64,000 nt of DNA from assembly GCA_963810935.1 (NCBI GenBank), contig CAWEPK010000009.1:204999-268998 (forward strand), read 5' to 3'. Position numbers and translations under genes: made by a program. Under the pieces are notes generated by a model. It was not told the origin of the DNA and made no database searches. It worked only from the letters and a program-made list of their open reading frames with translations. Source of the stretch: an uncultured delta proteobacterium (GTDB lineage: Bacteria; Desulfobacterota; Syntrophorhabdia; Syntrophorhabdales; WCHB1-27). Shown piece by piece: positions 8,825-37,445 of this stretch (within the stretch, counting starts at the first letter, position 1; every line of letters starts with the position of its first letter).

Positions 8825-9007
8825 TTAGAGCTCTTCTACCTTCAGGCGCTTCTTGCCCTTGTAGTTTCCGCATTTCGCGCATACGCGGTGGGACAGCATC
8901 GGCTCCTTGCAAGTCGGGCAGAGGACCACCCCGGGGGGCGAGGCCTTGTCATGCGTCCTTCTTTTGTCTCTCCTCGACTTTGATGTTTTTCTCTTCGGGA
9001 CAGGCAT
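8825..9007 (-). CDS. rpmF: 50S ribosomal protein L32
   Basis: [19 protein letters not shown] ... [18 protein letters not shown]; 60 aa. Confidence 0.95.
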
Positions 9008-9017
9008 AATATTCTCC

Positions 9018-9537
9018 TTACCGGTCTTTTAAAAAACTTTTCAGCTTCTCTCCCATAGCCGTACCCGTCTTCTCGCAGCCGCACTCCTCGACGTTGCGGT
9101 TCTTGCCGCAAACAGGACAGATACCCTTGCAGGCATCCGAGCAAAGGGCCTTTATGGGCAGGTCAAGCATTACCTCTTCGAAGACGTAGGGGTCGATATC
9201 GATCTCATCCCCTTCGAAGTAATATACGTTCATTTCATCGGTTTTTAACTCGACTTCTTCGCCGGCGGGCGTTTTTTGCCGCGGAAGCAGACTCTATATC
9301 GAGCTTCGATGATACCGAAAAAGTGAATTCCTCCAGGCAGCGGGCGCACGTCAGCGATAGCTCGGCACTCACCGGGCCGCTGAGCCATACATTATCGCCG
9401 GCCTTTTGTACCGTGATCTCATATTCGATGGGAGAGGCGAAGCCGATATCGGTGTCCTCGGGTCTCTTTAATTTCGCCCCGTCGAGCGACCCCTTGACCG
9501 ATATAGTATCCTGTAAGTCGTAAAGTTTTATAATCAT
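9018..9537 (-). CDS. yceD: YceD/DUF177 family protein (large-subunit accumulation protein), interrupted by an apparent +1 frameshift near 9285-9300
   Basis: Two abutting ORFs (9235-9537 and 9018-9233). The upstream frame reads ...SSKLDIE. The other frame continues [35 protein letters not shown]...[13 protein letters not shown] (DUF177 C-terminal Cys motif). Total span is 520 nt = 3n+1. Canonical position upstream of rpmF. Confidence 0.8.
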
Positions 9538-9563
9538 TGATTGTTTACCGTTTTGGGTCTAAC

Positions 9564-9593
9564 AATATAAAGGTTTTTTAGGCCTATTGTCAA
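9564..9593 (-). promoter_or_regulatory. Putative sigma-70 promoter for the yceD-rpmF-plsX-fab operon
   Basis: Minus strand TTGACA (9593-9588), 18-nt spacer, TATATT (9569-9564), about 30 nt upstream of the yceD start. Confidence 0.45.
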
Positions 9594-9679
9594 GCAATTT
9601 GGCCCTGACAGCCCCAGCGGCTCATCCGCCGTGGTTGCGCAAACCATTAAGAATACCTAATTTTTTAATAAAGGGCTAA

Positions 9680-11176
9680 TTGGGCACTAAAGGGGACGGC
9701 CATTCCGGGGAAGTCGATTGGCTCGCCGATGGGCTTTCGGCGTATCTCGCGCCCCTCATTGCCGGTCTTATGAAGCAGGGCTCGGCCGGGACGGGGGTGC
9801 CGGCTATCGCCAGGGCCCTCTGGTCGAAACTCGGCCCCAAAATAGAAAAGTCACCTCGACTCAAGGAAAGCGCAGAAGATCTGGCGCAGGGCCCGGCCGA
9901 CCCGGACCTGCTCGCCATTTTCGGGATACGGCTGCGCCGCCTCCTTTATTCGGATAGTGGCCTCGCTGCGTCGCTTCTGGAGGCGGCGGGGCCAAGGCAG
10001 GAGGAAATCCTGGGCGAGCACGGGGCCTGCCGGTGCGGGTTGCCCGGCGGGGACGATCCGGTCATGGACAGGATCGAGGCCGTCTATCGGCTCCGGTCCG
10101 GACGGCCGCCCGATGAGGTCGCGCGCGCAGTGGGCATGAGCGTGGAGCGGGTCTTCCGGCTGAACAGGCGTTTCTGCGCGGCCGGGGTAGCGGGCCTGCT
10201 TTCTGACACGGATACCGGCCATTGGCTCGCAAGGCTCGGACGCGACGACCCGGTTTTGAGAAGGCTCGACATGATCGACCTTGTGCGGTCCGGGACGCCC
10301 GCCGCAGTCGTAGCGCGTGAGTACGACGCGCTCCCGGAGTACGTGCAGATGGTCCACGAAAGGTTTTCACGGGGTGGGATGGCAGGCATGCTGACGGACG
10401 AGGAAAGAGAGCGGCTCTGGTCGCTCACGCCTAAAACGATCCGCGTCGCTTCATATAACCTGCACGGCCTGCACTGTGGGGCCGACCAGACGCAAAGGCT
10501 TAAGAATATCGGCTGGGCATTCGCCCGCCTGGACGTCCATGCAGCGGCCCTTCAGGAGGTCTTGAGCGGCGGAGAAGTGGAGGACACGGGCGTGCAAATC
10601 TCCAGGTGGGCGTCAAAGATGACGGGGTACAACTACCGGCCTTTCTTTGCCTACTGCCATCCATTCATGGAGAAGTACCCGGAGGGCGTTTCTGTGTCGG
10701 TCCGCTGCGCGCCGGAGGCAACGAAGACCATCGACCTCACCGGCTTGCCCCGCGGCCTCAAGCCGTCACTTACAAGAAACGCCCTGGCAGTCACCACAGA
10801 GGTCTTCGGCCGGAAAGTCGTCTTTGTATCGGTCCACCTCGACCATACCCGGGACCCGGCCGTGCGGCTGGCGCAGGCGGAGAAACTGGTGGCCGAGGTG
10901 GAGGCAGACGCGCCTCCAGGCGCCTGCCTCATTCTGGCGGGCGATTTCAACGACCTTGAGGATTCGCCTGCCATACACTCCCTGCTGTCGGCGGGTTACA
11001 CGGATACCTACAGGGCCCTGCACGGGGACGCGGGCAATACATACCCCGCGGGCGGACCTCAGATGAGGATCGACTACATCTTCGTGAAGGGCCATGCCGG
11101 GGTCGCCGCATCGGGACTCCTGCCCGATGACCCCGACCTTAGCGACCATATCGGAGTGTACGCAGAAATACGTTAA
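9680..11176 (+). CDS. Multidomain protein: unknown N-terminal region, two tandem HTH modules, C-terminal exonuclease/endonuclease/phosphatase (EEP) domain
   Basis: C-terminal 250 aa carry EEP signatures VASYNLHG, LQEV, VSVHLDH, GDFND and SDHIGVYAEI. aa ~126-175 and ~189-239 form an internal duplication resembling IS630/paired-type HTH (DDPVxxR...RSGxP..VAR....V...RF...GxAGxLxD). The start is uncertain (TTG at 9680; in-frame ATGs lie downstream). Confidence 0.75.
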   Translation: MGTKGDGHSGEVDWLADGLSAYLAPLIAGLMKQGSAGTGVPAIARALWSKLGPKIEKSPRLKESAEDLAQGPADPDLLAIFGIRLRRLLYSDSGLAASLLEAAGPRQEEILGEHGACRCGLPGGDDPVMDRIEAVYRLRSGRPPDEVARAVGMSVERVFRLNRRFCAAGVAGLLSDTDTGHWLARLGRDDPVLRRLDMIDLVRSGTPAAVVAREYDALPEYVQMVHERFSRGGMAGMLTDEERERLWSLTPKTIRVASYNLHGLHCGADQTQRLKNIGWAFARLDVHAAALQEVLSGGEVEDTGVQISRWASKMTGYNYRPFFAYCHPFMEKYPEGVSVSVRCAPEATKTIDLTGLPRGLKPSLTRNALAVTTEVFGRKVVFVSVHLDHTRDPAVRLAQAEKLVAEVEADAPPGACLILAGDFNDLEDSPAIHSLLSAGYTDTYRALHGDAGNTYPAGGPQMRIDYIFVKGHAGVAASGLLPDDPDLSDHIGVYAEIR

Positions 11177-11189
11177 ATCCGGGGTACTT

Positions 11190-12812
11190 ATGCCGCGCAG
11201 AGCCGGTTACTTCGTTCTCGCTTATGCCTGGGACCACCATTGCCGCAGGATCTATGATGCCCTCGACGGCAAGTTTCGGGCTGCCGAGCGGACGGCGCTG
11301 GAGCTTGAGCGCGAAGAGCCGGCCGGGATTGAGGCAATACTCGACTACTACCTGGCGTGGCATCGCTGCAATGAGACCTACCACGCAGCCACGGACGAGA
11401 CAAGAAGCAGGCAGTACGTTATAAACTCCCTGGGATACAGGGGCTACGGCGTAAACCGGGACCTCTTGGCCGCCCTGGGCGACCTGGCGCGCAGGTACGC
11501 CTGGATCGAGGGCGCGCTTCAGGACTGTTTTTACAGGAAGATAAGGGCCGCCTCCGAGATGGCGCGGGCCGGCCATGAGGCGATCGACGAGCACAGGTCA
11601 GAAGTTATCATTGAAAAGCTCGCGCACGTTGCGGGGAGGCACGATTTGCCCGGCGCACGTTATGATGCCGCCCCGGATTTAGGCGGTTACTTCGAGGTCA
11701 TGTCGAAAGAGACGCCGTGGCAAGCGAATACGGCGATCTTCCGGAAGATGTTCTTCGCGACTGGCGCGTCTTCCGTAACCATAATGAAGGGGAGCACCGG
11801 GTTGCAGGACGGCCGCTCCTGCCAGGAGGTGAAGCTCCTGGCCAACCGGAATTTCGTCGAGGCGGGGCGTGAGCTTTTCTCGAAGCTGGATGCCTTCACC
11901 GACATAGGGATCGACCTCTTAAAGAACATACATTACCTTCTGACGAAGGACTTGAGCGCAGGCGGCGGGGGTTTCCGCGCGATCGATTTTCCTGACAGAA
12001 ACGGAGTGACCTTCGAGTTCGACAATTTCCAGAGGGAGGTTGCAGACCTGTCGGTCGTCCTCGGCGAAACGGGCCGCAGCTTCGATAACCTACCGGAATT
12101 CCTCCATAACCTGGCCCGCTCGTACTACATGTTCATCGGGATACATCCCTTCTGGGACGCCAACGGCCGCTCCGGTAAGTGCTTCCTTAACTTTTTGCTG
12201 GTGAAAAAGGGGCTGCCGCCCATCCTGATGGACGACCGGGATGAGGTGCTCGCCCTCCCCCGCTACGGGGGGTCAATGGAGCAGATGCACGGCTACCTGC
12301 TCGCCAGGCTCAAGGCGGCCACGGACGTCTATTTCTACGAGAGATGGAAGCTGGAGACATCCGGCCTGCTGCACAGGGAAATCTACAACGTCTCCTTCGA
12401 CTCCGGTTTCCATTTCAGGCAGATAGGCGGCCGGCCGGCCCGGATCGAGGCAGGTTTCGAAGCATACGTCTGCAACGACGCTGCGCTCAGGCAGGCCCTT
12501 GAGGAGCATGCGGCCATCGTTTTCCCTGAAGACCGCCTGCTTTACGGGATGACCATCCACTGCGGCATCGCAGACGCCCCGTTCACGGAGTGGCGGCGCC
12601 CCTTCAGCCTTACCGGGAACTTTTACATTAAAGAGCTCGGGCAGGAGATCGAGGGCGTGAGGAGGTTCGACGTAGATTTTACCGTGGACGCACCGGGGCA
12701 GGGAGAGGGCGGCCCCTATTTCGCCTGCTCGGTCACAAGCCCGGAGGCCGGTCTCACATTCAACAACAAGGGACTCAACTATTCGTACCGCCTCGACGGC
12801 GGCGGCGCATGA
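11190..12812 (+). CDS. Fic/Doc-family protein (putative AMPylase/phosphotransferase) with large unknown N- and C-terminal regions
   Basis: Core motif IGIHPFWDANGRSGK at nt 12144-12170. ATG at 11190 follows the stop of the upstream gene by 13 nt; the track ORF start at 11094 overlaps that gene. Confidence 0.8.
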   Translation: MPRRAGYFVLAYAWDHHCRRIYDALDGKFRAAERTALELEREEPAGIEAILDYYLAWHRCNETYHAATDETRSRQYVINSLGYRGYGVNRDLLAALGDLARRYAWIEGALQDCFYRKIRAASEMARAGHEAIDEHRSEVIIEKLAHVAGRHDLPGARYDAAPDLGGYFEVMSKETPWQANTAIFRKMFFATGASSVTIMKGSTGLQDGRSCQEVKLLANRNFVEAGRELFSKLDAFTDIGIDLLKNIHYLLTKDLSAGGGGFRAIDFPDRNGVTFEFDNFQREVADLSVVLGETGRSFDNLPEFLHNLARSYYMFIGIHPFWDANGRSGKCFLNFLLVKKGLPPILMDDRDEVLALPRYGGSMEQMHGYLLARLKAATDVYFYERWKLETSGLLHREIYNVSFDSGFHFRQIGGRPARIEAGFEAYVCNDAALRQALEEHAAIVFPEDRLLYGMTIHCGIADAPFTEWRRPFSLTGNFYIKELGQEIEGVRRFDVDFTVDAPGQGEGGPYFACSVTSPEAGLTFNNKGLNYSYRLDGGGA

Positions 12813-14428
12813 AGACGCAGGAAATAACGGCGGAGGACTTTGCCCGGCCGTCCTACAAATGGATATGGGAGAGGCGCTTCATTCGCAACCTCCAGGGGTG
12901 GAGTATATCCCTCTTCCCGGCCGGCATAGGTTTTTCCGTCGCCGACTATGCTTCCGGGAAGGGCCTGCGCGTCTGCCTGTCCATAGAGCGGGAGGACGGG
13001 GCTGCCGAGTTCTACCTTGCCGACGCCTATTACGTGGGCGAATGGGGCGGGGGCTTTCAGAAATGGCAGACGCGCCCTGTGCCCGTATTCCCCTATGAGG
13101 GGCTTCACGGCCTTACGCGGGCCGTGACCTTCTCCTACAGCGTGCTGAAAGACGGGGCGGCCATCCCGTCCCGTTTCCGGTACCGGTTCGCAAGCCTAGA
13201 AGATTTTTACCGCGGCCGCCTGGCCATCGACGACTTCTATGACCCGTCCTTCAAGAGCGAAAACGACGAGCCGATGGCGGCATCCGATGACGAGGCCGTC
13301 CGGCTGGCGTACCTCCGCATGAACGCCGCGGCCGGCCCGCTCCCTATCGCGCCGCTGTTTACCCGCGGCAACGAGTGGAGGCCCGAGCACCCTGTACATG
13401 CAATCCACCGCGCCATCGACAGGGTGATAGAAAAGGCGGACACGGAGCAGGGCACGCGCCAATCGATAAGCCTCGCCATGTTCGATTTCGACAACGAGCA
13501 CATTACAAAACATCTGGTCTATGCGAAAGAGAAAGGGGTAGAGGTCGAATGCATAGGGGACTGGGCGCAGGTGAGCCCCATGAATGTCTCCGAAAATATC
13601 GCGCGCCTTCGCCGTGCGGGAATTCGCGTCTATGGCGTCGTCCGCAACGACCCCACCCGGCTGCACCAGGACATCGCGAGCATGCACACAAAATTCGTCA
13701 TTTTTAATAGCGACGAGGTCCACTCCGGTTCGTACAACCTCCATTTCCATCTCTGGGGAGGCAACTGGGAGAGCGGCCTCGCCTTCCGGTCGCCGGAGGC
13801 GGCCGTCATATACCGCTCCATCTACAACGCGATCAGGTTCGGCCTCAAGACGGGCCTCGACGTGGACCCGGCCGCAAGGCAGAACGTCTATTATACGTTC
13901 GGCGCTTACCGTACTGGGAGCGCACCGTTCCGCCCGCAGGACGCGATTATAACCGAGATAGAGAACGCGGCCCGCTCCATCGTAGTCTGCATGTTCGAGA
14001 TAAGCCCCATAACCGGCGCGCCCGATGGGCGCGGCCCGGAGACGGATATTGTAGGGGCGCTGATCCGCGCGAGGGATAGGGGTGTGCGCGTGCGGGTCAT
14101 CGTAAACGGGATGATGAGCCACACGGGGCCGCAGCCCGCAGACTGGGACAAAGACTTTTCGAGGCCGCTGAAGCACGCCTTCAACCGGCTGAGGGACGCA
14201 TGGATCGAGGTCTATTACGTCTATTACCACGAGAGCATTTACTCGCCGCTGCACCATAAGTTCGCAGTCTTCGACGAGGAATGCGTCATTGCCGGATCGT
14301 ACAACTGGTACGAGCCGAGCCTTTATTCCGACGAGATACTTACGGTGACGCGGGACGACCACCTGGCTGCCGCGTTCCTGGAAGAAGTTGAGCTGGTGCT
14401 GAGGTCGTTCAGGGTCCGAAAAGGCTGA
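12809..14428 (+). CDS. Phospholipase D-fold protein with two HKD motifs (PLD/Nuc-like phosphodiesterase)
   Basis: HTKFVIFNSDEVHSGSYN (from nt 13685) and HHKFAVFDEECVIAGSYN (from nt 14252); 539 aa. ATGA start/stop overlap with the Fic gene. Confidence 0.85.
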   Translation: MKTQEITAEDFARPSYKWIWERRFIRNLQGWSISLFPAGIGFSVADYASGKGLRVCLSIEREDGAAEFYLADAYYVGEWGGGFQKWQTRPVPVFPYEGLHGLTRAVTFSYSVLKDGAAIPSRFRYRFASLEDFYRGRLAIDDFYDPSFKSENDEPMAASDDEAVRLAYLRMNAAAGPLPIAPLFTRGNEWRPEHPVHAIHRAIDRVIEKADTEQGTRQSISLAMFDFDNEHITKHLVYAKEKGVEVECIGDWAQVSPMNVSENIARLRRAGIRVYGVVRNDPTRLHQDIASMHTKFVIFNSDEVHSGSYNLHFHLWGGNWESGLAFRSPEAAVIYRSIYNAIRFGLKTGLDVDPAARQNVYYTFGAYRTGSAPFRPQDAIITEIENAARSIVVCMFEISPITGAPDGRGPETDIVGALIRARDRGVRVRVIVNGMMSHTGPQPADWDKDFSRPLKHAFNRLRDAWIEVYYVYYHESIYSPLHHKFAVFDEECVIAGSYNWYEPSLYSDEILTVTRDDHLAAAFLEEVELVLRSFRVRKG

Positions 14429-14741: not shown

Positions 14742-16943
14742 TTATGAGGTAAGCTTGAAGACCAGTCCCGCAAGGGGCGGGAGGTCGAGGTTGAGCGAGC
14801 AGGGGCGTCCGTGCCACTGCACGGGATCCGTAAGGCGGCCGCCCTGGTTGCCGAGATTGCTCCCCCAGTAGAGGCCCGAGTCGCTGTTGAGTGCTTCCCT
14901 GTAAAAGCCCGGTTTTGGGACACCGATGCGGTAGTTGTATCGCGGCACCGGGGTAAAATTGAACGCGAAAACGAGAAAGTCGTCCGGGTCCCTCGCCTTC
15001 CTGATGAAAGAGACGATGCTCCGCCCGTAGTCGCCGAAGTCGATCCATTCGAAGCCCTCGTAGCTGAAATCGACCTGGTGCATTGCGGGCTCCTTCGTGT
15101 AAAGCGCGTTCAGGTCCCGCATGAACGCCTGGAGCTTTTTGTGCGGCTCGTATTCCAGGAGGTGCCAGTCGAGGCTGGCGTTCGCGTTCCATTCCCACCA
15201 CTGGCCGAACTCTCCCCCCATAAAATTGAGCTTCTTCCCGGGCTGCGCGAACATGTAGGAGAAGAGCAGCCTCAGGTTGGCGAACTTCTGCCAGAAATCG
15301 CCCGGCATCTTATCCAGGAGCGACCGCTTGCCGTAGACGACCTCGTCGTGGGAGAGGACGAGGATGAAATTTTCCGTGAACGCGTAAAGGAGCGCAAAGG
15401 TGAGGTTGTTGTGGTGGTACTTGCGGAACACGGGGTCGTCCTCGAAGTATTTGAGTATGTCGTTCATCCACCCCATATTCCACTTCATGCTGAAGCCGAG
15501 GCCCCCCAGGTAAGTAGGGCGGGAGACGGCAGGCCAGGCGGTCGATTCCTCCGCGATGGTGAGCACCCCGGGGCGGCGGCCGTGGACGACTTCGTTGAAG
15601 CGCTTGATGAGCGCGACCGCTTCCAGGTTCTCGTGGCCGCCAAACTGGTTCGGGACCCATTCGCCCTGCTTCCTCGAATAGTCCAGGTAGAGCATGGAGG
15701 CCACCGCATCGACCCGGAGGCCGTCGATATGGTATTTATCAAGCCAGAAAAGGGCGTTGGAGATGAGGAAATTGGCGACCTCGTTCCGCCCGTAGTTGAA
15801 TACGAGCGTGCCCCATTCCTTGTGCTCTCCTTTAAGCGGGTCTGCGTGCTCGTAAAGGGCAGTGCCGTCGAAATATGCGAGGCCGTGGGCATCCCTCGGG
15901 AAATGCGCAGGCACCCAGTCCATGATTACGCCAATGCCCGCCCGGTGCATCGAATCGACGAAATACATGAAGTCGTCGGGCGTCCCGAACCGGCTCGTGC
16001 AGGAGTAGTAGCCTACCGTCTGGTATCCCCAGGACTCGTCCAGCGGGTGCTCGCTTACCGGCATGAGCTCGACGTGCGTGTAGCCCAGCTCCTTCACGTA
16101 CGGCGCCATCTCGTCGGCCAGCTCCCGGTACGTCAGCCAGCGGTTATCTTCTTCGGGGACCCTGCGCCACGAGCCGAGATGGACCTCGTAGATGGAAATG
16201 GCCGCATCGAACCAGTTCGTCTCCTTGCGCGCCTCCATCCAGCCCGCGTCCGACCAGAGATACTTGTCGAGGTCCCAGACTATGGAGGCGCTTTTCGGCC
16301 GCAATTCCGAATAGAACGCATAGGGGTCGGCTTTTTCCGCAAGGAAGCCCTTGTAGCGTCCTTTGACTTCATATTTATAAACTATGCCCGCTTCCAGGCC
16401 GGGAATGAATATCTCCCAGACGCCCGTCGAGCCGCGCACGCGCATCATGTGGCGCCTGCCGTCCCACTTGTTGAAATCGCCCGTGACGCTCACCCTGATG
16501 GCGTTGGGCGCCCAGACCGCGAAGAATACGCCTTTGACTCCGCCCAGCGTCATCTCGTGCGCGCCGAGCTTTTCGTACTGGTCGTAATGCTTCCCTTCGG
16601 CGATCAGGTAAAGGTCGTAATCGGAAAGGACGGGCAGGAAGGAATAGGGATCGATGAACACCCGGGATGCTCCCGTTAGGTACGTCTCTTTCAGCCGGTA
16701 GCCGAAGACCTCCGTCTTACCGCGTACGACCGCCTCGAAGAAGCCGTCCTTGTGGAGCCTCTTCATGGGGTATTCCGCACCCGTTGCGGTCTCGACCAGT
16801 GCGGCCTCTGCGGCCTCCGGCAGGAAGGCGCGCACAGCCACACACTCCTTGCCGCCCCATTTTATGACATGGCTACCCAGAATCCCGAACGGGTCCTGGC
16901 AGGCGGAGTTAATGATTTTCTCTATCTCTTCTTTCAGCGCCAC
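14742..16943 (-). CDS. glgB: 1,4-alpha-glucan branching enzyme
   Basis: 733 aa GH13. DGLRVDAVASMLY, AEESTAWP and LSHDEVV catalytic regions. Confidence 0.97.
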   Translation of the reverse strand: MALKEEIEKIINSACQDPFGILGSHVIKWGGKECVAVRAFLPEAAEAALVETATGAEYPMKRLHKDGFFEAVVRGKTEVFGYRLKETYLTGASRVFIDPYSFLPVLSDYDLYLIAEGKHYDQYEKLGAHEMTLGGVKGVFFAVWAPNAIRVSVTGDFNKWDGRRHMMRVRGSTGVWEIFIPGLEAGIVYKYEVKGRYKGFLAEKADPYAFYSELRPKSASIVWDLDKYLWSDAGWMEARKETNWFDAAISIYEVHLGSWRRVPEEDNRWLTYRELADEMAPYVKELGYTHVELMPVSEHPLDESWGYQTVGYYSCTSRFGTPDDFMYFVDSMHRAGIGVIMDWVPAHFPRDAHGLAYFDGTALYEHADPLKGEHKEWGTLVFNYGRNEVANFLISNALFWLDKYHIDGLRVDAVASMLYLDYSRKQGEWVPNQFGGHENLEAVALIKRFNEVVHGRRPGVLTIAEESTAWPAVSRPTYLGGLGFSMKWNMGWMNDILKYFEDDPVFRKYHHNNLTFALLYAFTENFILVLSHDEVVYGKRSLLDKMPGDFWQKFANLRLLFSYMFAQPGKKLNFMGGEFGQWWEWNANASLDWHLLEYEPHKKLQAFMRDLNALYTKEPAMHQVDFSYEGFEWIDFGDYGRSIVSFIRKARDPDDFLVFAFNFTPVPRYNYRIGVPKPGFYREALNSDSGLYWGSNLGNQGGRLTDPVQWHGRPCSLNLDLPPLAGLVFKLTS

Positions 16944-17097: not shown

Positions 17098-17123
17098 CCG
17101 GCTTCTGTGCTAAAATATTGCCA
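17098..17123 (+). promoter_or_regulatory. Putative extended -10 promoter giving a leaderless or near-leaderless kdpE mRNA
   Basis: TGcTAAAAT at 17108-17116, only 6 nt before the kdpE ATG (17123). No Shine-Dalgarno lies between them. Confidence 0.3.
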
Positions 17124-17812
17124 TGTCCGAAGGGGCCAGGATACTTGTGGTCGATGACGAGCAGCAGATCCGCCGGATGCTTAAAACTGCGCTCTCCGGT
17201 TACGGATACAATATCGGGGAGGCGGCTACCGCAAAAGAAGGCCTCTCGCAGGCTGCAATTTTCCACCCTGACCTCATCGTTTTGGACCTCGGCCTGCCCG
17301 ACGCGGACGGCATGGAGGTCATATGTCACCTGCGCGAATGGACGCAGGTCCCCATCATCGTCCTCTCCGTAAGGGAAGGCGAGACCGACAAGATCGGCGC
17401 CCTCGATGCAGGGGCGGATGATTACCTGACGAAACCGTTCAGTATGGGGGAGCTGCTCGCGCGCATCCGCGTAGCTTTGCGCCACGCTGCCGGGAGCGAT
17501 GACGAGCCTGTCCTTACATTCCCCGACCTCGTCCTCGACCTGGCCCGCCGCGTGGTCCTTCTTAAGGGACAGGAGCTGAAGCTGACGCCCACCGAATACG
17601 AGATCGTCAAGTATCTGGCCATCCACGCGGGGAGGGTCGTCACGCACGGGCAGTTGCTCAGGGCGGTCTGGGGCCCGAACTACCAGGAGAGCACCCAGTA
17701 CCTCCGCGTCTATGTGGGACAGTTGCGCCGCAAGATGGAAGAGGAACCGGCAAGGCCCCGCTACATCGTTACGGAGGCGGGCGTAGGCTACCGGTTCATG
17801 TCGGGGGAGTAA
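17123..17812 (+). CDS. kdpE: OmpR-family response regulator KdpE
   Basis: REC domain (ILVVDDE, LDLGLPDADG, KPF) plus winged-helix output (LTPTEYEIVKYL, GVGYRF). Directly upstream of kdpD and kdpABC. Confidence 0.9.
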   Translation: MSEGARILVVDDEQQIRRMLKTALSGYGYNIGEAATAKEGLSQAAIFHPDLIVLDLGLPDADGMEVICHLREWTQVPIIVLSVREGETDKIGALDAGADDYLTKPFSMGELLARIRVALRHAAGSDDEPVLTFPDLVLDLARRVVLLKGQELKLTPTEYEIVKYLAIHAGRVVTHGQLLRAVWGPNYQESTQYLRVYVGQLRRKMEEEPARPRYIVTEAGVGYRFMSGE

Positions 17813-19341
17813 TGGCCGCACACGTTGAGGCGCACATGGCGGCGGACGGGCCGGGATCGCACCGCAACCCGGCGGCGCCGTACCTCTGGACAGTCCTTCT
17901 CGTTGCGCTCATGACCGGCGTAGGCAAGCTGGTCGCCCCCTTTTTCGACATCGTCAACATCACGCTTCTGTACCTGCTGCCGGTGCTCTTCAGCGCAGTG
18001 CGCTGGGGGCGCGGCCCCTCCCTGTTCGCTTCTTTTTTAGGCGTGCTGACGTTCGATTTCTTTTTCGTGCCGCCTATCCACAGCTTTGCGGTGAGCGACA
18101 TCAAGTATATCTTTACCTTCGCAGTCTTTCTCCTTGTCGGGGTAGTTACGGGCACGCTCGCGACGAGGATCCGCAACGAGCTGGAAAAAACGAGGCAAAG
18201 GGAGAAGAGGACGCTTGCTCTCTATGCGCTGAGCGAGCAGATAGCGAGCAAGGCGGACCTGGATGCAATCCTTACAACGTTCCTCGTGACCGTCTCGGAA
18301 GCAACGGGCGGTCCCGTCTCCGTTATGATGGCAGAGGACGGAGGCGCCATCCGGGAAGTCGCCTCCTATCCTGCGTCGTCCAATGAGAAAGACGAGAAGG
18401 AAACGGCCGTAATCCATTGGGTGCTCGAACACGGCATGAGCGCGGGTAGGGACACGGAGACCCTGCGCGACGCAAGCCGGCTCATCTTTCCTGTAAAGGC
18501 GGACAATAAGACGCTCGCCGCCTTATGCATCACGCCTGGTGAAGAGGATAAGGCCATCTCGCCGGAGAAGCGGCAGCTCATCGAGGCGTTTGCCAACCTT
18601 GCCGCAGTCGCTATTATCCGCCTGCGGCTGGCGGAAGAAGCGGGACAGGTGCACCGGCTGGCCGAATCGGCGAAGCTCCACAAGGCCCTTCTCGACTCCA
18701 TCTCGCATGACATCCGGACACCTCTCGCCTCCATTACAGGTGCAGTCACGACGCTCATGGCCGAGGGCGGATCTTACGACACGGAATCCAAGGAGATACT
18801 CCTCGATACGATCAAGGCGGGCGCACTGCGCCTCAACAGGTTCGTTGCAAACCTGCTCGATACCGCGCGTCTTGAAAGCGGCACCCTCAAGCTGCGCTCC
18901 GATTGGTGCGACGTGCAGGACATCGTGGGTGCGGCCCTGAGGGAGGTAAGCGAGGGCCTGGCCGGACGGTCCGTCCCCCTCGATATCTCCTGCGACCTGC
19001 CCCCGGTAAAGGCCGATTTCGCGCTTATCGAGCACGTCCTTATAAACCTCCTGGAGAACGCGGCCAAGTACAGCCCGCCGGGCAGTGAGATCGCACTCTC
19101 CGCCCGCTCAGCGGAAAAGGCAGTGCTGGTAAGCGTCACGGACCACGGCCCGGCCATCCCGACCCGGGAGAGGGAGCGCATTTTCGATAAGTTCTACCGC
19201 CTGGAACGGTCGAAGGGCGCGGGTGGCTCCGGGCTGGGCTTGTCGACGTGCAGAGGCATAGTCGAGGCCCACGGCGGCATGATCTGGGTCGATTCCCCCG
19301 ACAGCGAAACGAACCGCTTCACCTTTTCCCTGCCCCTTTAG
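17812..19341 (+). CDS. kdpD: Sensor histidine kinase, KdpD C-terminal type (DUF4118 membrane domain, GAF, HisKA, HATPase); lacks the KdpD N-terminal/Usp sensor
   Basis: H-box SISHDIRTPLASITG, N-box LINLLENAAKY and G-box GGSGLGLSTCRGIV. Four TM helices at the N-terminus. 1-nt overlap with the kdpE stop. Confidence 0.85.
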   Translation: MAAHVEAHMAADGPGSHRNPAAPYLWTVLLVALMTGVGKLVAPFFDIVNITLLYLLPVLFSAVRWGRGPSLFASFLGVLTFDFFFVPPIHSFAVSDIKYIFTFAVFLLVGVVTGTLATRIRNELEKTRQREKRTLALYALSEQIASKADLDAILTTFLVTVSEATGGPVSVMMAEDGGAIREVASYPASSNEKDEKETAVIHWVLEHGMSAGRDTETLRDASRLIFPVKADNKTLAALCITPGEEDKAISPEKRQLIEAFANLAAVAIIRLRLAEEAGQVHRLAESAKLHKALLDSISHDIRTPLASITGAVTTLMAEGGSYDTESKEILLDTIKAGALRLNRFVANLLDTARLESGTLKLRSDWCDVQDIVGAALREVSEGLAGRSVPLDISCDLPPVKADFALIEHVLINLLENAAKYSPPGSEIALSARSAEKAVLVSVTDHGPAIPTRERERIFDKFYRLERSKGAGGSGLGLSTCRGIVEAHGGMIWVDSPDSETNRFTFSLPL

Positions 19342-19503
19342 CCGCCTTCCGGGCGGCCCGGCATCAGTACCCGTCTTTATATTTTATTTATGCGGCCGTA
19401 CGTTCTTTTTACAACCAATTAATGCGGAAAGCACTAAATTATACATAACAAAAACTGGCTGGTTGTCTGTCCCCAGGGTGGGGAACTCTACCGGAGGCCG
19501 AAA

Positions 19504-21201
19504 ATGGCGAAAGAGATATTCCTGATTGTTATATACCTAGCGGTCCTTGCACTGCTCGCCCCGCCCCTCGGCCGCTACATCGCGGCGGTGCTGAGCGGCA
19601 GGCGGAACGCCCTCTCGTGGCTAGTCCGCCCGGTCGAGGCGGCCGTTTACCGCGTCAGCGGCATAGACGAGAACAGGGAGATGTCCTGGAAGGCGTATTC
19701 CGTTGCCTTTCTTCTCTTCAGCGGCGTCAGCTTCGTTGCCCTCTTCCTTCTCCAGCTCCTCCAGGGGCACCTGCCGCTCAACCCCCGCAATTTCGGGGCC
19801 GTGCGCTGGGATACGGCCCTCAATACCGCCATTTCCTTTGTGACGAACACGAACTGGCAGGCCTACGGCGGCGAGAGCACGATGAGCTACCTGACCCAGA
19901 TGCTTGGCCTGACCGTCCAGAACTTCGTCTCGGCCGCCGCCGGGATCGCGGTCCTGCTGCCGCTCATCAGGTGCTTCACCGCAAAAATGAAAGATACGGT
20001 CGGGAATTTCTGGGTCGATATGACCCGCTCGGTGCTCTACATACTGCTTCCTTTAAGCATCATACTTTCCCTCGTCCTTGCCTCTCAGGGCGCGGTGCAG
20101 ACGCTCGGCGATTACGTCAATGCTGCAACCCTTGAAGGCGGCCGGCAGGTCATCGCGGTCGGTCCTGCGGCGTCTCAGGTGGCGGTCAAGCAGCTCGGCT
20201 CCAACGGGGGCGGCTTCTTCAACGCCAATTCCGCGCACCCCTTCGAGAACCCCAACGACCTGACTAACTTCCTTGAGCTGCTCTCGATACTGCTGATCCC
20301 TGCCGCGCTGCCGCTTGCTATGGGCAGGATGCTCGGCAACAGGCGACAGGGCTGGGCCATCTTCGCCGCTATGGCGGTCCTTTTCACGATCGGCCTGGCC
20401 CTTGCCTTCGCCGCCGAATGGCAGACGAGCCCATTCCTCGCAAAGCTGGGCATTACAGGCAATATGGAAGGGAAAGAGGTCCGCTTCGGCATAGGCCAGT
20501 CGGTGCTCTGGGGCCAGTCGACCACGGTCACTTCCAACGGCTCCTTAAACGCCATGCAGGACAGCATGATGCCGCTCACCGGGCTCGTCTACATGTTCAA
20601 CATGGCTGTCGGCGAGGTGATTTTCGGCGGCGTCGGCGTCGGGCTGATCGGCATGGTTATGTATGCGATCCTCGCCCTTTTCCTCGCGGGCCTGATGGTC
20701 GGCCGCACGCCGGAATTCCTGGGAAAGAAGCTCGAATCGAGGGAGATGATAATGGCCGTTGTCGTCGTCGTGGCCCCCGCCATTGCGAGCCTCGTATTCG
20801 CAGGCATCGCGGTCGTTGCGCGTGCGGGCCTTTCGGGCTTGAACAACGCGGGGCCGCACGGCCTGTCAGAGATACTCTATACGTTTTTCTCGTCCTGCGG
20901 CAACAACGGCTCGGCCTTCGCGGGGGTAAATGTGAACACGCCGTTCTATAACCTGACGACGGGCTTCTGCATGATCGTGGGGCGCTTCCTGACGATACTG
21001 CCCGCCCTCGCGGTCGCAGGCTCGCTCGCATCGAAGAAGATCATACCGCCGAGCTCGGCCACGTTCCCGACGGCCGGCCCGCTTTTCATATGCATGCTCG
21101 CGGCCGTAGTCGCCATTGTCGGCGCCCTTACGTTCTTTCCGGCCCTCGTGCTCGGGCCCATCCTCGACCACCTCCTGCTGATGTCGGGCAGGACCTTCTA
21201 A
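19504..21201 (+). CDS. kdpA: Potassium-transporting ATPase subunit A
   Basis: 565 aa polytopic protein. [10 protein letters not shown] and [19 protein letters not shown] selectivity-filter-like motifs. Confidence 0.97.
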
Positions 21202-21212
21202 GGAGGCCGGAC

Positions 21213-23249
21213 ATGGAAGAAAAACCGATCAGCATCTGGCAGACGAAGTTAATCAAATCGGCTATAGCAGGCGCGTTCAGGCGGCTCGACCCCCTGCTCC
21301 TCTGGCGCAACCCGGTCATGCTCGTCGTAGAGATCGTCTCCGTTGTAACAACGGTCATAGCGATAGGCAACCTTTTTTACGGCGGCCCTTTCGGGCTCAA
21401 CCTGCAGATCAGCATCTGGCTCTGGTTCACCGTGCTTTTCGCCACCTTCGCGGAGGCCCTTGCGGAAGGCAGGGGCAAGGCGCAGGCGGAGACACTGCGT
21501 AAGGCGCAGACAGAGGCATACGCCTATAAACTGGTGGACGGGGACAGGACCGAGAAGGTGCCCGCCCTATCGCTGCGGAAGGACGACATAGTGGTCATGG
21601 AAGACGGCGACCCTGTCCCCGGCGACGGCGAGATCATCGAGGGGGTGGCCCTCGTCGATGAATCGGCCGTAACGGGGGAGTCGGCCCCGGTCATACGGGA
21701 GGCCAAAGGCGACCGCAGCGCGGTCACCGGGGGCACCCGCGTCCTTTCCGGCAAGGTCAAGGTAATGATCACGGCGAACCCCGGCGAGACCTTCCTCGAT
21801 CATATGATCTCGATGGTGGAGAGCGCGAAACGGCAGAAGACACCCAACGAAGTCGCGCTGGAGATCCTGCTCGTCGGGCTGACCGTCCTCTTCATCGTGG
21901 TCGTCGCCACGCTATCGCCTTTCGCAATGTACAGCGGCGTTGCCATCGCAGTGCCCGTGCTCGTTGCCCTGCTCGTCTGCCTCATACCGACGACCATCGG
22001 CGGCCTCCTGCCCGCCATAGGGATCGCAGGCATGGACCGGCTGATAAGGCACAACGTCATAGCCCTCTCCGGCCGCGCGGTCGAGGCGGCGGGCGACGTA
22101 GACGTCGTGCTCCTCGACAAGACGGGGACCATCACCCTGGGCAACCGCATGGCGACCGATTTCATACCTGCCGACGGGGTAGCCAGGGATGAGCTTGCGG
22201 AGGCAGCCCTCCTCTCGTCGCTGGCCGACGAGACGCCGGAAGGGCGCTCTATCGTGGCCCTCGCCAAGCACTTCCTCTCGATACGCGGCCGGGACATCAA
22301 GACGCCGGACGCCTCGTGCTTCATACCATTTACCGCGGAGCTGCGCATGAGCGGCGTCTCCCTCGAAGGGCGCGAGATACGAAAAGGGGCCACGGACGCA
22401 GTCGCCGCTTACGTGAAATCCAAGGGCGGCACGATCCCGGAGAGCATCGACCAGGCGGCCCAGGTCGTCGGAAGGGAAGGCGGGACGCCCCTCGTTGTGG
22501 CCGATTCGTCGCGCGCCCTAGGCGTCATCCAGTTGAAGGACGTGCTGAAGGAGGGCATCAAGGAGAGGCTGAACCAACTGCGCCTCATGGGCATCCGCTC
22601 GACGATGATAACGGGAGACAACCCGCTCACCGCAGCGGCCATCGCCGCTGAGGCAGGCATCGATGATTTCGTCGCCCAGGCGAAACCCGAAGAAAAGCTG
22701 CGGCTCATCCGCAAGTACCAGGCGGAAGGCCACCTGGTGGCGATGATCGGAGACGGGACAAACGACGCGCCCGCGCTGGCGCAGGCCGACGTTGCGGTCG
22801 CAATGAACGCGGGCACCCAGGCGTCGCGTGAGGCGGCCAATATGGTGGACCTCGATTCGAACCCGACCAAGCTCCTCGATATAGTCGAGATCGGCAAGCA
22901 GATACTCATGACAAGGGGGGCGCTGACTACTTTCAGCGTGTCGAACGACGTGGCCAAGTACTTTGCCATTATCCCGGCCATTTTCGTGCAGGTCTTTCCC
23001 GCTCTGGCTATCCTGAACGTGATGCGCCTCAGTACGCCGGAGAGCGCCATCCTTTCGGCGATCATATTCAACGCGATTATCATACCCCTTCTGATACCGC
23101 TGGCGCTGAAAGGGATCAAGTACCGGCCGATCACGGCAAAGGCGCTCCTCTGGCGGAACCTGTTTATTTACGGCCTCGGAGGCGTGGTCCTGCCTTTCAT
23201 CGGCATCAAACTGATCGACTTGGCCGTTGTTTTCCTGCATTCGGTATAA
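21213..23249 (+). CDS. kdpB: Potassium-transporting P-type ATPase subunit B
   Basis: DKTGTIT phosphorylation motif, TGDNPLTA and [16 protein letters not shown] at 21213 with AGGAGG upstream; the track ORF start at 21090 overlaps kdpA. Confidence 0.97.
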
Positions 23250-23259
23250 GGAGGGGCGC

Positions 23260-24261
23260 ATGAAGGAACTTATCCGGGCCATTCTCATCTTTGTCGTATT
23301 CTCGGTAATCACGGGCCTCGCCTACCCACTGGGCATCACGGGCGCGGCCAGGCTCTTTTTTGCAGACAAGGCCGCAGGCAGCCTGATTACGGACAAGGGG
23401 CGCGTAGTCGGGTCCGCGCTCATCGGGCAGAAATTCGCGAGCGCCCGTTATTTCAACAGCCGGCCTTCGGCAAACGATTATGACGCGACGAACTCAGGCG
23501 GCTCCAATTTCGGGCCTGCCAGCGCAAAACACTTAAAGGAAGTGGCTGCGAGGGTGAAAAAGGAGCGCGATGATAACGGCATTGCCCCCGGCGCAGCCGT
23601 ACCTGCCGACCTGGTGCTCGCCTCGGCAAGCGGGCTCGACCCGCACATCACGATTGAAGCGGCCCTTGTCCAGGTGTCGAGGGTCGCCGCCAGCCGGGGC
23701 CTTGTGCCGGAAGACCTGAAGGCGCTCGTAGAATCTGCGGCAGAGGGGACATATGTGGGCGGGCAGCGCAGGGTCAACGTAGTCCGGCTGAACATGGCGA
23801 CCGACAGGCTCCAGGAGGCAGCAAAAACGCTGATGCAGGACAAAGAGGCTATTTTCGACTACCTGGCTTCGAGGATCATCGGTACGGACGATTACAATTT
23901 CAGGCACTACCTCAAAGAGTGCGTTGGGCGCCTGCCTCTCGAAGACCTACGCGCCGTGGCCTACGAAAGGAACGTGCATATCCTTGTGACTGCGGGAAAC
24001 GCCGTCATCGGCCTCGACCGGGTCCTTTACGACCAGGGCAAGGGCGACATGGTGCTCGTCGTCTTCACGTCGAATTTCAGCAAGATGCCTGCCCACGAGA
24101 TAGTCTACATCATAGCCCACGAGTTGGCCCACGTATTCTTAGGGCATTACGACAGTAAGAAGTGGAGGGGCAAGCACGGCGAGGCGGAGGCGGACCGGCA
24201 GGTAATTAAATGGGGCCTGGAGAGGGAATTAAAGGAATCGGCCTCGGCTTATCTTCACTAG
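23260..24261 (+). CDS. kdpC: KdpC fused in frame to a C-terminal ~140-aa HExxH (ImmA/IrrE-like) domain
   Basis: The N-terminal ~190 aa are typical KdpC (single TM, SGGSNFGP, ASASGLDPHIT). The ORF then continues without a stop into ...VYIIAHELAHVFLGH...GEAEADRQV. AGGAGG precedes ATG 23260. Confidence 0.8.
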   Translation: MKELIRAILIFVVFSVITGLAYPLGITGAARLFFADKAAGSLITDKGRVVGSALIGQKFASARYFNSRPSANDYDATNSGGSNFGPASAKHLKEVAARVKKERDDNGIAPGAAVPADLVLASASGLDPHITIEAALVQVSRVAASRGLVPEDLKALVESAAEGTYVGGQRRVNVVRLNMATDRLQEAAKTLMQDKEAIFDYLASRIIGTDDYNFRHYLKECVGRLPLEDLRAVAYERNVHILVTAGNAVIGLDRVLYDQGKGDMVLVVFTSNFSKMPAHEIVYIIAHELAHVFLGHYDSKKWRGKHGEAEADRQVIKWGLERELKESASAYLH

Positions 24262-24278
24262 CACGCCAATTCATCACA

Positions 24279-36300: not shown

Positions 36301-37445
36301 GGTCGCCCGGCCGCAGCTTCCTGTATATCTCGAGGAGCGCTTCGTCCTTGCCGCCTGCCTTGTCGATAAGGAGCGTGTCCCGGAGCGAAGAGCTCGACGT
36401 TCAGGTTGTCGATGAAAAGGACTTCAAAGCTCTTTATGTTGCGGGCGGTTATCTTCGTCAGATCGTCTTCGGTGATCTCCTTGTTGATCGGGACGATCAC
36501 TTCTTTCGTCTCCGGATCGATTATGCTGGCCGCCACCACCTTGCCGATGACGTCCTGCTCATCGACCGGTATCTTGACGATATTCGCCTGCTCCATCTTC
36601 TTGATGACGCCCTTGGTGATCTTCTTGTGCTTCTTGACCAGCACCTCGTCCGTCTTGGTGTTGATGATATCGGCCGGGGCCTTCTGACCCAGGAGCAGCT
36701 CGAAAGGCGTCTCTTTGAAGACTTTTCCGTCTTTTATGCTGACCGTTTCCTTCTCATAGAAGTAATCGAGAATCTCCTTCTCCGAATAGCCCAGCGCCCG
36801 CAGAAGGAGGGTTACGGGAATTTTCTTCCGTTTGTCGATGCGAACATAAAGGAGCTCTTTGTGGTCGAACTCGAAATCGAGCCAGGAGCCCCGGTACGGG
36901 ATGATCCTTGCCGTGTAGGCGAAGTTGCCGCTGAAGGGCGCTTTCGACTGGTCGCAGTCGAAGTAGACGCCGGGCGAGCGATGGAGCTGGCTGACGATGA
37001 CCCGCTCTGTCCCGTTGATGATGAACGTCCCCCTCTCAGTCATGAGAGGTATCTCCCCGAAATAGACGTCCTGTTCCTTTACAGCCTTTATATCTTTTAT
37101 CTTGGTGTTCGGATCGACGTTGAAGACGACGAGCCGTATCGTAACCTTCATGGGGGAGGCAAAGGTGAGACCCCGGACGATGCACTCCTCCTCGGAATAC
37201 TTAGGATCGCCGATCTCGTACTGGACGAACTCCAGCGAGGTCGTCTCGTGCGAGTCCTTTATGGGGAAGACGCTGGTGAAAACCGCCTGAAGCCCCACGC
37301 TGGTCCGCTCTTCCACGGGTATGTCCTTCTGGAGGAAGATTTCGTACGAACTTAACTGAATCTCGATAAGATTGGAAATATCGAGAACCTCTTTGAGCTT
37401 CCCGTACGTCTTTCTCACAATCTTATTATGAAAGGTTTGCCTCAT
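33338..37445 (-). CDS. rpoB: DNA-directed RNA polymerase subunit beta, reading frame broken by one extra nucleotide near 36390-36400
   Basis: Two ORFs (36264-37445 and 33338-36262). The N-terminal frame is RpoB-like up to ...FIDNLNV and then reads junk. The downstream frame reads [36 protein letters not shown]...[14 protein letters not shown] upstream of the first Met in the track. Span is 4108 nt = 3n+1. Confidence 0.97.

Follow-up and report, generated by a model that had tools for sequence, protein, structure and literature searches.

What three consecutive genes for a phosphoesterase, a Fic-family protein and a phospholipase D-type enzyme do side by side on a bacterial chromosome is the question raised by positions 9680–14428 of the 64,000-nucleotide stretch analysed here (contig CAWEPK010000009.1 of assembly GCA_963810935.1, an uncultured delta proteobacterium; hereafter the window). 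The first gene encodes two tandem helix-turn-helix (HTH) repeats in front of an endonuclease/exonuclease/phosphatase (EEP) domain, the second a Fic protein and the third a phospholipase D (PLD) superfamily protein with two HKD motifs. An earlier note on this DNA had described them as an orphan, island-like cassette and had favoured a conflict (anti-phage or toxin) system, with phospholipid head-group remodelling as the fallback. Comparison of the locus with its relatives indicates that EEP, Fic and PLD are a rare but ancient, tightly co-inherited trio and one functionally coupled unit, which is probably an enzyme module that is inherited vertically on the chromosome and works in the cytoplasm on or at a branched alpha-glucan (glycogen-type) storage polymer. 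That the module is associated with glucan in some way we hold to be somewhat better than an even bet; for the specific proposal, in which the trio carries out a glucan-directed cycle of writing, processing and erasing, we put the probability at roughly 0.4. As a defence or toxin cassette the trio is not supported.

Neighbourhoods of the trio were sampled at several divergence levels, followed by the GTDB species representatives (41 loci) and a metagenome scan (20 loci); individual loci are denoted by L numbers. Four groups of trio loci emerged, namely metagenome-assembled genomes (MAGs) of Syntrophorhabdales or "delta proteobacterium" type, Nitrospirota of the Magnetobacteriaceae type, Myxococcales and Xenobia (Eremiobacterota). 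One Syntrophorhabdales-like MAG, L009, is 93–97% identical to the window. Among about 60 loci from these four phylum-level groups, practically all those on sufficiently long contigs kept the order EEP-Fic-PLD, and the pairwise identities of EEP, Fic and PLD correlated with r = 0.91–0.975 (32 loci). Myxococcales have Fic and PLD joined in a single protein of ~1,085 aa, which in L039 carries Fic at residues 247–343 plus PLDc_2, and in the Nitrospirota genome GCA_004321915 the PLD gene is unlinked from the EEP-Fic pair with all three genes still present. The earlier note had proposed checking whether the three genes co-occur elsewhere and had read them as one unit; the check came out positive, and the conserved order, the correlated identities and the Fic-PLD fusion bear this reading out.

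The operon is not equally compact in all lineages. In two Nitrospirota-type loci (L035, 4722–11602; L064, 4737–11590) EEP lies about 1 kb from Fic, so that tight coupling of the trio is not obligatory, and in L035 Fic and PLD are separated by two further small genes without annotation (168 and 188 aa). In the genome with the unlinked PLD gene, a gene for a Glyco_trans_1_2 glycosyltransferase (L050, 2732–3787, minus strand) lies next to EEP-Fic, downstream and convergent; it is one more neighbour related to carbohydrates, in a single case. Some related MAGs also have broken trio genes: the EEP gene of L002 is in three pieces, and the PLD genes of L043 and L070 are in two each.

The sole recurrent neighbour of the trio is an alpha-glucan branching enzyme, which is either a GH13 GlgB or a GH57 enzyme and stands in at least five arrangements. 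It adjoins the trio in 16 of the 46 non-redundant genome loci and in 11 of the 20 metagenome loci, several of which were too short to be informative. The GH13 gene is convergent and downstream in the window, L009–11, 13, 14, 16, 18, L052–54, 56, 57 and 63, co-directional and downstream of PLD in L036 and L048 (at a distance of 49–103 nt) and in L070, and upstream of the trio in L043. The GH57 gene is co-directional and directly upstream in the Magnetoovum-type Nitrospirota locus L005 and likewise upstream in all Eremiobacterota-type loci (L006, L008, L047, L066, L068, L069), and is convergent with the trio in L033; the trio of L065 is flanked by both enzyme types. Given that such genes number one or two in a genome of a few thousand, a rough estimate of the probability of chance adjacency is ~1e-3 per arrangement, and at least five of these arrangements are independent. 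Since GH13 and the non-homologous GH57 enzymes catalyse the same reaction and replace each other beside the trio, we infer that the shared link is the branched glucan and not a protein partner. In the window itself, glgB was identified as the NCBIfam GlgB equivalog (1013.7 bits versus a cutoff of 741) with the Pfam domains GlgB_N, CBM_48, Alpha-amylase and Alpha-amylase_C; what had been taken for a mere flank of the cassette is a member of its one recurrent partner family. The GH57 enzyme was directly preceded by a DUF4912 gene in four of the four loci checked (from Nitrospirota, Eremiobacterota and a delta-proteobacterial MAG; Table 1), and judging from this arrangement DUF4912 seems to accompany GH57 branching enzymes as a conserved partner.

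The three open reading frames (ORFs) are, as their conservation indicates, real enzyme genes with intact catalytic sites and not chance ORFs. In gene 1 Pfam detected Exo_endo_phos with 68.6 bits (cutoff 24.5, E = 8.5e-19), and N260, E293, H386, D388, H389, D422, N424, D465 and S488-D489-H490 were invariant in 38 of 38 sequences. The Pfam score and these positions, which include the catalytic N, E, D, N, D and H of the EEP superfamily, place the protein in that superfamily. The 53 EEP orthologue clusters share 40–70% identity with gene 1. A search of the PDB with the family profile ranked 3teb first (1.6e-19), followed by 3g6s, 3mpr, 3l1w and 4c1r (1e-7) and then by Tdp2 and Nocturnin; DNase I, ExoIII and APE1 were not among the structure matches of this profile. 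The entry 3teb and the bacterial EEP structures ranked next to it are uncharacterised, and 4c1r is the Bacteroides mannosyl-6-phosphatase BT3783. When the EEP domain was searched as a single sequence, Tdp2 came first in the PDB (E = 0.002; 5e-6 with the profile), aligned over about 65 residues. Two EEP orthologues (P0161, P0167) carry the label MapP in the JGI annotation; MapP, the maltose-6'-phosphate phosphatase, belongs to the EEP family and acts on the 6-phosphate of an alpha-1,4-glucoside (PMC3737437). By sequence, the domain appears closest to the sugar-phosphate phosphatase-like EEPs. Of the two HTH repeats in front of it, one was recognised by Pfam as HTH_23 (E = 6.4e-8) and the second was not picked up; aligned with each other the repeats show 39% identity over 56 aa (E = 1e-11). 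The Eremiobacterota EEP orthologues are only 249–290 aa long and have none of the N-terminal and HTH region, and the DNA-binding part should therefore be accessory to catalysis.

Gene 2 matched Pfam Fic with 39.7 bits (cutoff 24, E = 8.8e-10) and has more than 120 orthologue clusters at 40–69% identity. In its active-site motif H319, P320, F321, D323, N325, G326 and R327 were invariant in all 58 sequences compared; at the G/A position of the superfamily motif HxFx(D/E)(G/A)N(G/K)R the window protein has Ala and the family consensus is Ser. Foldseek comparison of the AF2 model (pLDDT 88.5, pTM 0.86) gave FICD/HYPE as top matches (E = 5e-6) of the helical body (residues 16–390), and motif, Pfam score and fold match together assign the protein to the Fic/Fido superfamily. 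On inspection by eye, no (S/T)xxxE(G/N) inhibitory motif was recognisable in the gene 2 Fic protein.

The helical body is followed by a C-terminal beta-sandwich, for which the non-Fic Foldseek matches of the model include the CBM21 domain, a carbohydrate-binding module (CBM), of the glycogen-targeting subunits of protein phosphatase 1 (PP1), namely 2eef with a probability of 0.97 and 7qf7, the CBM21 of PTG with beta-cyclodextrin, with a probability of 0.77. For profile comparison with hhalign, a CBM21 profile was assembled from PDB-verified sequences and CBM48 was taken as control. The Fic C-terminal domain matched CBM21 with P = 0.003–0.0055 over the last 36 columns, including NN-x-G-x-NY, at an hhalign probability of 7–10%; the real score was matched in 1 of 300 column shuffles, and the CBM48 control gave P = 0.31. 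By transitive alignment via the CBM21 alignment, the invariant N139 of the domain corresponds to Asn101 of RoCBM21 and F132 to Tyr93, with the counterpart of Tyr94 deleted; Tyr93 and Asn101 are binding-pocket residues of RoCBM21 (PMC3511584). A profile search of 1.84 billion representatives with this domain returned 18 matches, all of which belong to this Fic family save one spurious Cys-rich protein (P0308). Neither Pfam nor the PDB gave a sequence match for the domain, and in view of this and of its narrow occurrence we regard the CBM21 likeness as suggestive and not as established. In Eremiobacterota the Fic orthologues are 640–690 aa long (L006, 5983–8004; L008, 6037–7965; L047, 8001–9965), with an extra ~110–130 aa C-terminal to the beta-sandwich for which no Pfam match was obtained, and they are partnered by the EEP proteins that have no HTH region.

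Gene 3 matched PLDc_2 twice (128 bits, E = 2.1e-37). About 105 orthologue clusters form a tight group, after which the E-value jumps from 1e-83 to 1e-8. H293 and K295 of the first motif and H482, K484 and D489 of the second were invariant in 57 of 57 sequences; the D position of the first motif is Asp in the family and Asn in the window protein. The AF2 model (pLDDT 94.2, pTM 0.94) consists of an all-beta domain followed by a bilobal two-HKD core, whose Foldseek matches comprise the bacterial PLD 7e0m, vaccinia F13, the PLD3/4 exonucleases and PssA, with two-HKD PLDs reached at E = 1e-17. Pfam score, both HxK motifs and the fold match of the model thus agree in placing the protein among the two-HKD PLDs, and the fold matches, being generic, do not discriminate between substrates. 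The N-terminal all-beta domain has conserved aromatic and other residues (among them W18, W86, F94-P95, H100-G101 and F108) and gave no Pfam or PDB sequence match. With hhalign its comparison with CBM21 was not significant (P = 0.05–0.06; CBM48, P = 0.27), and no likeness between the beta-domains of Fic and PLD was found (P = 0.3).

At the level of the letters, the earlier description of the genes proved accurate. The three plus-strand ORFs lie where it had placed them, and their spacing of a 13-nt gap and an ATGA overlap is exact in the sequence: gene 1 ends with TAA at 11174–11176, 13 nt before the ATG at 11190, and the overlap of genes 2 and 3 spans 12809–12812, both junctions being read directly. 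The catalytic codons that it had named are right (Fic H319 at 12144, PLD H293 at 13685, PLD H482 at 14252), the two HTH modules are genuine repeats, and its assignment of an EEP fold, of the Fic core HPFWDANGR and of two HKD motifs agrees with the Pfam matches and invariant residues given above. The coordinates of all features are collected in Table 1.

Table 1. Features of the EEP-Fic-PLD locus, with positions in the window unless a locus number is given.
Feature	Position	Strand	Basis or description
Gene 1, HTHx2-EEP phosphoesterase, 498 aa	9680..11176	+	ORF list; helical N-terminal region, two HTH_23-type repeats, EEP domain
Two tandem HTH repeats, residues 125-180 and 189-244	10052..10411	+	internal repeat
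EEP catalytic domain, residues 256-498	10445..11173	+	catalytic residues, family profile
Gene 2, Fic-family protein, 540 aa	11190..12812	+	helical FICD-like body (residues 16-390) and C-terminal beta-sandwich
Fic active-site motif HPFWDANGR, H319-R327	12144..12170	+	alignment
Fic C-terminal beta-sandwich, residues 398-534, CBM21-like (suggestive), terminal motif FNNKGLNYSY	12381..12791	+	Foldseek, hhalign
Gene 3, two-HKD PLD-superfamily phosphodiesterase/transferase, 539 aa	12809..14428	+	N-terminal beta-domain and bilobal core
N-terminal all-beta domain of PLD, residues 12-128	12842..13192	+	DSSP on AF2 model
First HxK motif, H293-T-K295	13685..13693	+	alignment
Second HKD motif, H482-H-K484...D489	14252..14275	+	alignment
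glgB, GH13 1,4-alpha-glucan branching enzyme, convergent with trio	14742..16943	-	NCBIfam, Pfam
Intergenic region between divergent yceD-rpmF-plsX and gene 1	9538..9679		presumed trio promoter/operator region, function inferred
DUF4912 gene followed by GH57 gene	L005 3789-6327; L006 2152-5178; L008 1589-4992; L033 11889-14159		

In the cycle that we propose, the Fic protein, docked on the glucan via its CBM21-like domain, would move a nucleotidyl or phospho group from a nucleotide donor to a hydroxyl group. As target of this step the glucan itself is preferred because the partner branching enzymes are non-homologous. The PLD protein, paired with Fic, would then cleave or transfer the resulting phosphodiester via a histidine-phospho intermediate, and the EEP domain would strip the remaining phosphomonoester, like MapP and the mannosyl-6-phosphatase. 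In most lineages the HTH repeats would furthermore let the EEP protein double as a DNA-binding autoregulator. The net effect would be that covalent phosphoester marks on the glucan are written, processed and erased, with each enzyme being used once. In its boldest form the proposal states that Fic nucleotidylates or phosphorylates glycogen itself, which would be the first non-protein Fic substrate and part of the first bacterial reversible glucan phosphoesterification cycle coupled to branching, one that would have arisen in convergence with GWD/SEX4 of plants and laforin of animals; we consider this form unlikely.

A number of observations weigh against the glucan cycle. The evidence for it is entirely comparative and is at its weakest where the Fic C-terminal domain is assigned to CBM21 and where a substrate is named for Fic. 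For the Fic C-terminal domain neither a Pfam CBM nor a PDB sequence match was obtained, the hhalign probability is as low as stated above, and in the profile search the domain was found in no other protein context that might corroborate a binding role; to our knowledge, no Fic enzyme modifies a carbohydrate. About two thirds of the genome loci are without an adjacent branching enzyme, no other glycogen genes (glgA, glgC, glgP) were found near the trio loci, and the 64-kb window contains no further glycogen genes beyond the branching enzyme. The nearest solved relatives of PLD by sequence are Zucchini/MitoPLD and Nuc-type nucleases, to which DrmC models have to be added. Finally, the partial Tdp2 match and the HTH repeats in most EEP orthologues would also be compatible with a nucleic-acid role.

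With regard to its chromosomal context, the "orphan" and "island-like" placement described previously did not hold. The window is core chromosome, in which plsX and rpmF lie upstream of the trio, a Kdp system lies downstream of it and rpoB, rpoC, tuf and rpoD come at a greater distance, and the minus-strand flanks named in the earlier note could be verified for plsX (by Pfam), rpmF (by eye, 8825–9007, minus strand) and the glgB equivalog. The GC content of the trio (0.60–0.64) and its GC content at third codon positions (GC3, 0.76–0.78) are within the range of the neighbouring genes. In other genomes the trio is flanked by housekeeping genes, too, which differ between lineages. No relative of the trio was found by tblastn on 72,556 plasmids or in 50,697 phage records, and the scan of IMG/VR viral contigs likewise returned none. 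Searches with PADLOC and NCBIfam gave sub-threshold matches only, which were limited to the catalytic cores, and the EEP protein matched no PADLOC model.

The named systems suggested by these matches were compared individually. A DISARM locus combines DrmC with DrmA (helicase), DrmB (DUF1998) and a methylase or DrmD/E. Gene 3 scored 51 bits against the DrmC equivalog with an NCBIfam cutoff of 133, and neither in the window nor in the ~60 loci was a helicase, DUF1998 or methylase partner of DISARM found. A Fic/Doc toxin-antitoxin module (FicT/FicA, Doc/Phd) pairs a small toxin with a neighbouring gene for a small antitoxin that provides the inhibitory helix, and the locus is not of this kind: DOC_P1 reached 13.5 bits (cutoff 38.65), gene 2 encodes 540 aa, the 13-nt gap and the 4-nt overlap leave no space for an antitoxin-sized ORF, and the neighbouring proteins have 498 and 539 aa. 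The best match to the PADLOC candidate PDC-S04/SoFic was 37.7 bits and covered the Fic core only (residues 212–351), and the SoFic equivalog scored 20.9 bits versus a cutoff of 550. Every named candidate tested fails a defining feature, in line with the earlier remark that the combination was not recognisable as a named system.

Among the other explanations for the trio, the main rival to the glucan cycle also places it at the glycogen granule. According to this explanation a CBM21-tethered Fic AMPylates a granule enzyme, and PLD and EEP erase the Ser/Thr/Tyr-O-AMP diester. All characterised Fic enzymes that we know of target proteins, the nearest Fic structures belong to the FICD/HYPE AMPylase/deAMPylase family, and the CBM21 matched by Foldseek is the very module by which a protein-modifying enzyme is held on glycogen. 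The linkage to branching enzymes would be accounted for as well, and so would the partial EEP likeness to Tdp2, since the Tyr-phospho-5'-nucleotide bonds that Tdp2 cleaves are of the type found in Tyr-AMP. However, the GH13 and GH57 folds are unrelated, which makes a single protein-recognition surface unlikely if both enzymes are targets, and two erasers for one writer are unparsimonious. The Fic-PLD fusion, moreover, suits consecutive steps better than a writer joined to its own eraser, although in FICD writing and erasing activities do reside in one protein. All in all we judge such an AMPylation switch to be unlikely, albeit worth keeping in mind. The anti-phage or toxin system of the earlier note, with an HTH-EEP protein that senses or binds DNA and with Fic and a Nuc-like PLD nuclease as effectors, would fit the patchy distribution over four phyla, the proximity of PLD to Zucchini- and Nuc-type nucleases by sequence and domain-level matches of PLD to DrmC, MkoB and NucT and of Fic to PDC-S04 and SoFic. 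Occasional mobile or defence neighbours were also noted, each in one lineage and by eye only (a type I restriction-modification methylase-like ORF in L020, 11835–13868; an AAA ATPase in L024, 11784–13031; a transposase-like ORF in L039, 12145–13272). Against this, the PADLOC and NCBIfam matches are far under the family cutoffs and confined to catalytic cores, the flanks are housekeeping genes, GC and GC3 are normal, and plasmid, phage or viral copies were not found in the records searched. The genes show a pattern of vertical co-evolution, are kept when unlinked and are not accompanied by an antitoxin-sized gene, and the repeated linkage to branching enzymes would be left unexplained. The conflict reading is not borne out by these results and is in our opinion improbable.

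Repair of DNA or protein-DNA adducts would assign a Tdp2-like role to EEP and a Tdp1/Nuc-like role to PLD, with the HTH repeats guiding both to DNA and Fic modifying a topoisomerase-like target. The Tdp2 match, which ranks first in the PDB for the single EEP sequence (E = 0.002), speaks for this, but it covers only ~65 residues and falls below the sugar-phosphatase-like EEPs when the family profile is used. The PLD relatives are nuclease-like, yet Tdp1 was not found among the sequence or fold matches of PLD, and while the tandem HTH repeats would suit binding to DNA, the Eremiobacterota orthologues are without the HTH region. An Mfd, SMC or PDDEXK protein adjoins some loci, but these repair neighbours are limited to one closely related locus group (L001, L012, L021); the branching-enzyme linkage is not explained. 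We therefore take a repair function to be very improbable. Phospholipid head-group remodelling, the earlier fallback, would combine a Cls/Pss-type PLD with a phospholipase C/sphingomyelinase-like EEP and an AnkX-like phosphocholine-transferase Fic. Foldseek indeed puts PLD near PssA and classical PLDs, but also near nucleases, so that PssA is only a generic fold neighbour, and ClsB reached 14.8 bits versus a cutoff of 281. The Ala in HPFWDANGR, where many AMPylators have Gly, and weak AnkX matches (E = 0.0024–0.011) recall AnkX, but the family consensus at this variable motif position is Ser and not the AnkX-like Ala. No membrane segment was found in any trio protein, the maximum 19-residue hydropathy of 1.2 being below membrane-span values for all three, and no lipid gene recurs beside the trio, plsX adjoining it in the window's own clade only. 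Because membrane segments are absent and the Cls/Pss models fail, the lipid reading is disfavoured and we give it hardly any chance.

As to the expression of the trio, a consensus scan revealed no convincing plus-strand promoter or terminator for it; in 9538–9679 the only promoter-like site lies on the minus strand (9593–9564). The longest ORF of gene 2 opens at 11094, and orthologue alignments favour the start at 11190. Long antisense ORFs of 388 aa (13196–14362, minus strand) and 622 aa (14811–16679, plus strand) overlie the PLD gene and glgB, respectively. Such shadow ORFs recur across loci only through lying antisense to conserved genes and show no sign of being genes themselves.

Elsewhere in the window, two abutting minus-strand ORFs in different frames (9235–9537 and 9018–9233) together make up the yceD-like (DUF177-type) gene that lies upstream of rpmF, and the downstream frame reads through; the break is a +1 frameshift or an assembly indel, more likely the indel. 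The rpoB gene (minus strand, 33338–37445) is split as well, with Rpb2 domains 1–2 in 36264–37445 and domains 2–7 in 33338–36262, and this second indel-type break hints at a MAG built from long reads in which some frameshift errors remain. The Kdp locus (17123–26315) contains a response regulator and a DUF4118-GAF-HisKA-HATPase kinase (17123–19341), followed by kdpA, kdpB and kdpC. A separate minus-strand protein (24279–26315) carries KdpD sensor, Usp and DUF4118 domains and no kinase domains at E < 1e-5, so that the Kdp sensor appears, from its domain content, to be split over two proteins.

If the glucan cycle is true, Fic chemistry would reach beyond protein signalling and toxins into storage-polysaccharide metabolism, and bacteria would control glycogen structure by covalent phosphoester marks, which have so far been a matter of plants and animals only. 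Should the mechanism be wrong, the conserved EEP-Fic-PLD unit with its natural Fic-PLD fusion and its tie to two branching-enzyme types still holds, and it provides a handle on the function of three "hypothetical" protein families and of DUF4912. The locus also calls for caution, as Fic, PLD and EEP with HTH in a tight operon are not enough to call a defence system.

Literature searches yielded no description of Fic, PLD and EEP together, of a Fic-glycogen link or of a DUF4912 function; the trio is without a characterised counterpart, and at the domain level each of its proteins is an ordinary superfamily member for which relatives can be compared. DrmC and the Nuc/Zucchini PLD nucleases share the PLD fold and the HKD motifs with gene 3 and are the best sequence matches of its second lobe, but they are single-HKD proteins of ~150–250 aa that dimerise, whereas gene 3 encodes both HKD motifs in one chain of 539 aa and a beta-domain in addition. 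The FICD/HYPE AMPylases are nearest to the Fic core in solved structures and in sequence, and the catalytic motif is intact; identity is just 12–14%, however, and gene 2 differs from them in its helical N-terminal part and in its C-terminal beta-sandwich. MapP and BT3783 (4c1r) have the same fold and the same catalytic residues as the gene 1 EEP, and in the profile search 4c1r and the related uncharacterised EEPs rank above the nucleases, but neither of them has a counterpart of the 250 N-terminal residues of gene 1 with their two HTH repeats. The PP1 subunits GL/PPP1R3B and PTG/PPP1R3C hold a protein-modifying enzyme on glycogen by means of their CBM21. Structures of such CBM21 domains are matched by the Fic C-terminal domain, which also shares NN-x-G-x-NY with them, the likeness being at the fold level with a weak profile signal and no Pfam CBM_21 match; in place of a separate phosphatase, the catalytic part is here a Fic domain on the same polypeptide. 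In plants the GWD/PWD dikinases together with the SEX4/LSF2 phosphatases, and in animals laforin, are CBM-bearing enzymes that write or erase phosphoesters on alpha-glucan and thereby control how it is structured and turned over, and defects in these systems lead to starch-excess phenotypes and Lafora disease; we know of no bacterial counterpart of this phosphorylation cycle. The trio proteins have no dikinase, dual-specificity phosphatase, CBM20, CBM45 or CBM48 domains and their folds are unrelated, so the comparison is one of analogy only, but functionally the GWD/PWD-SEX4/LSF2-laforin systems are the closest analogue of the cycle proposed here.

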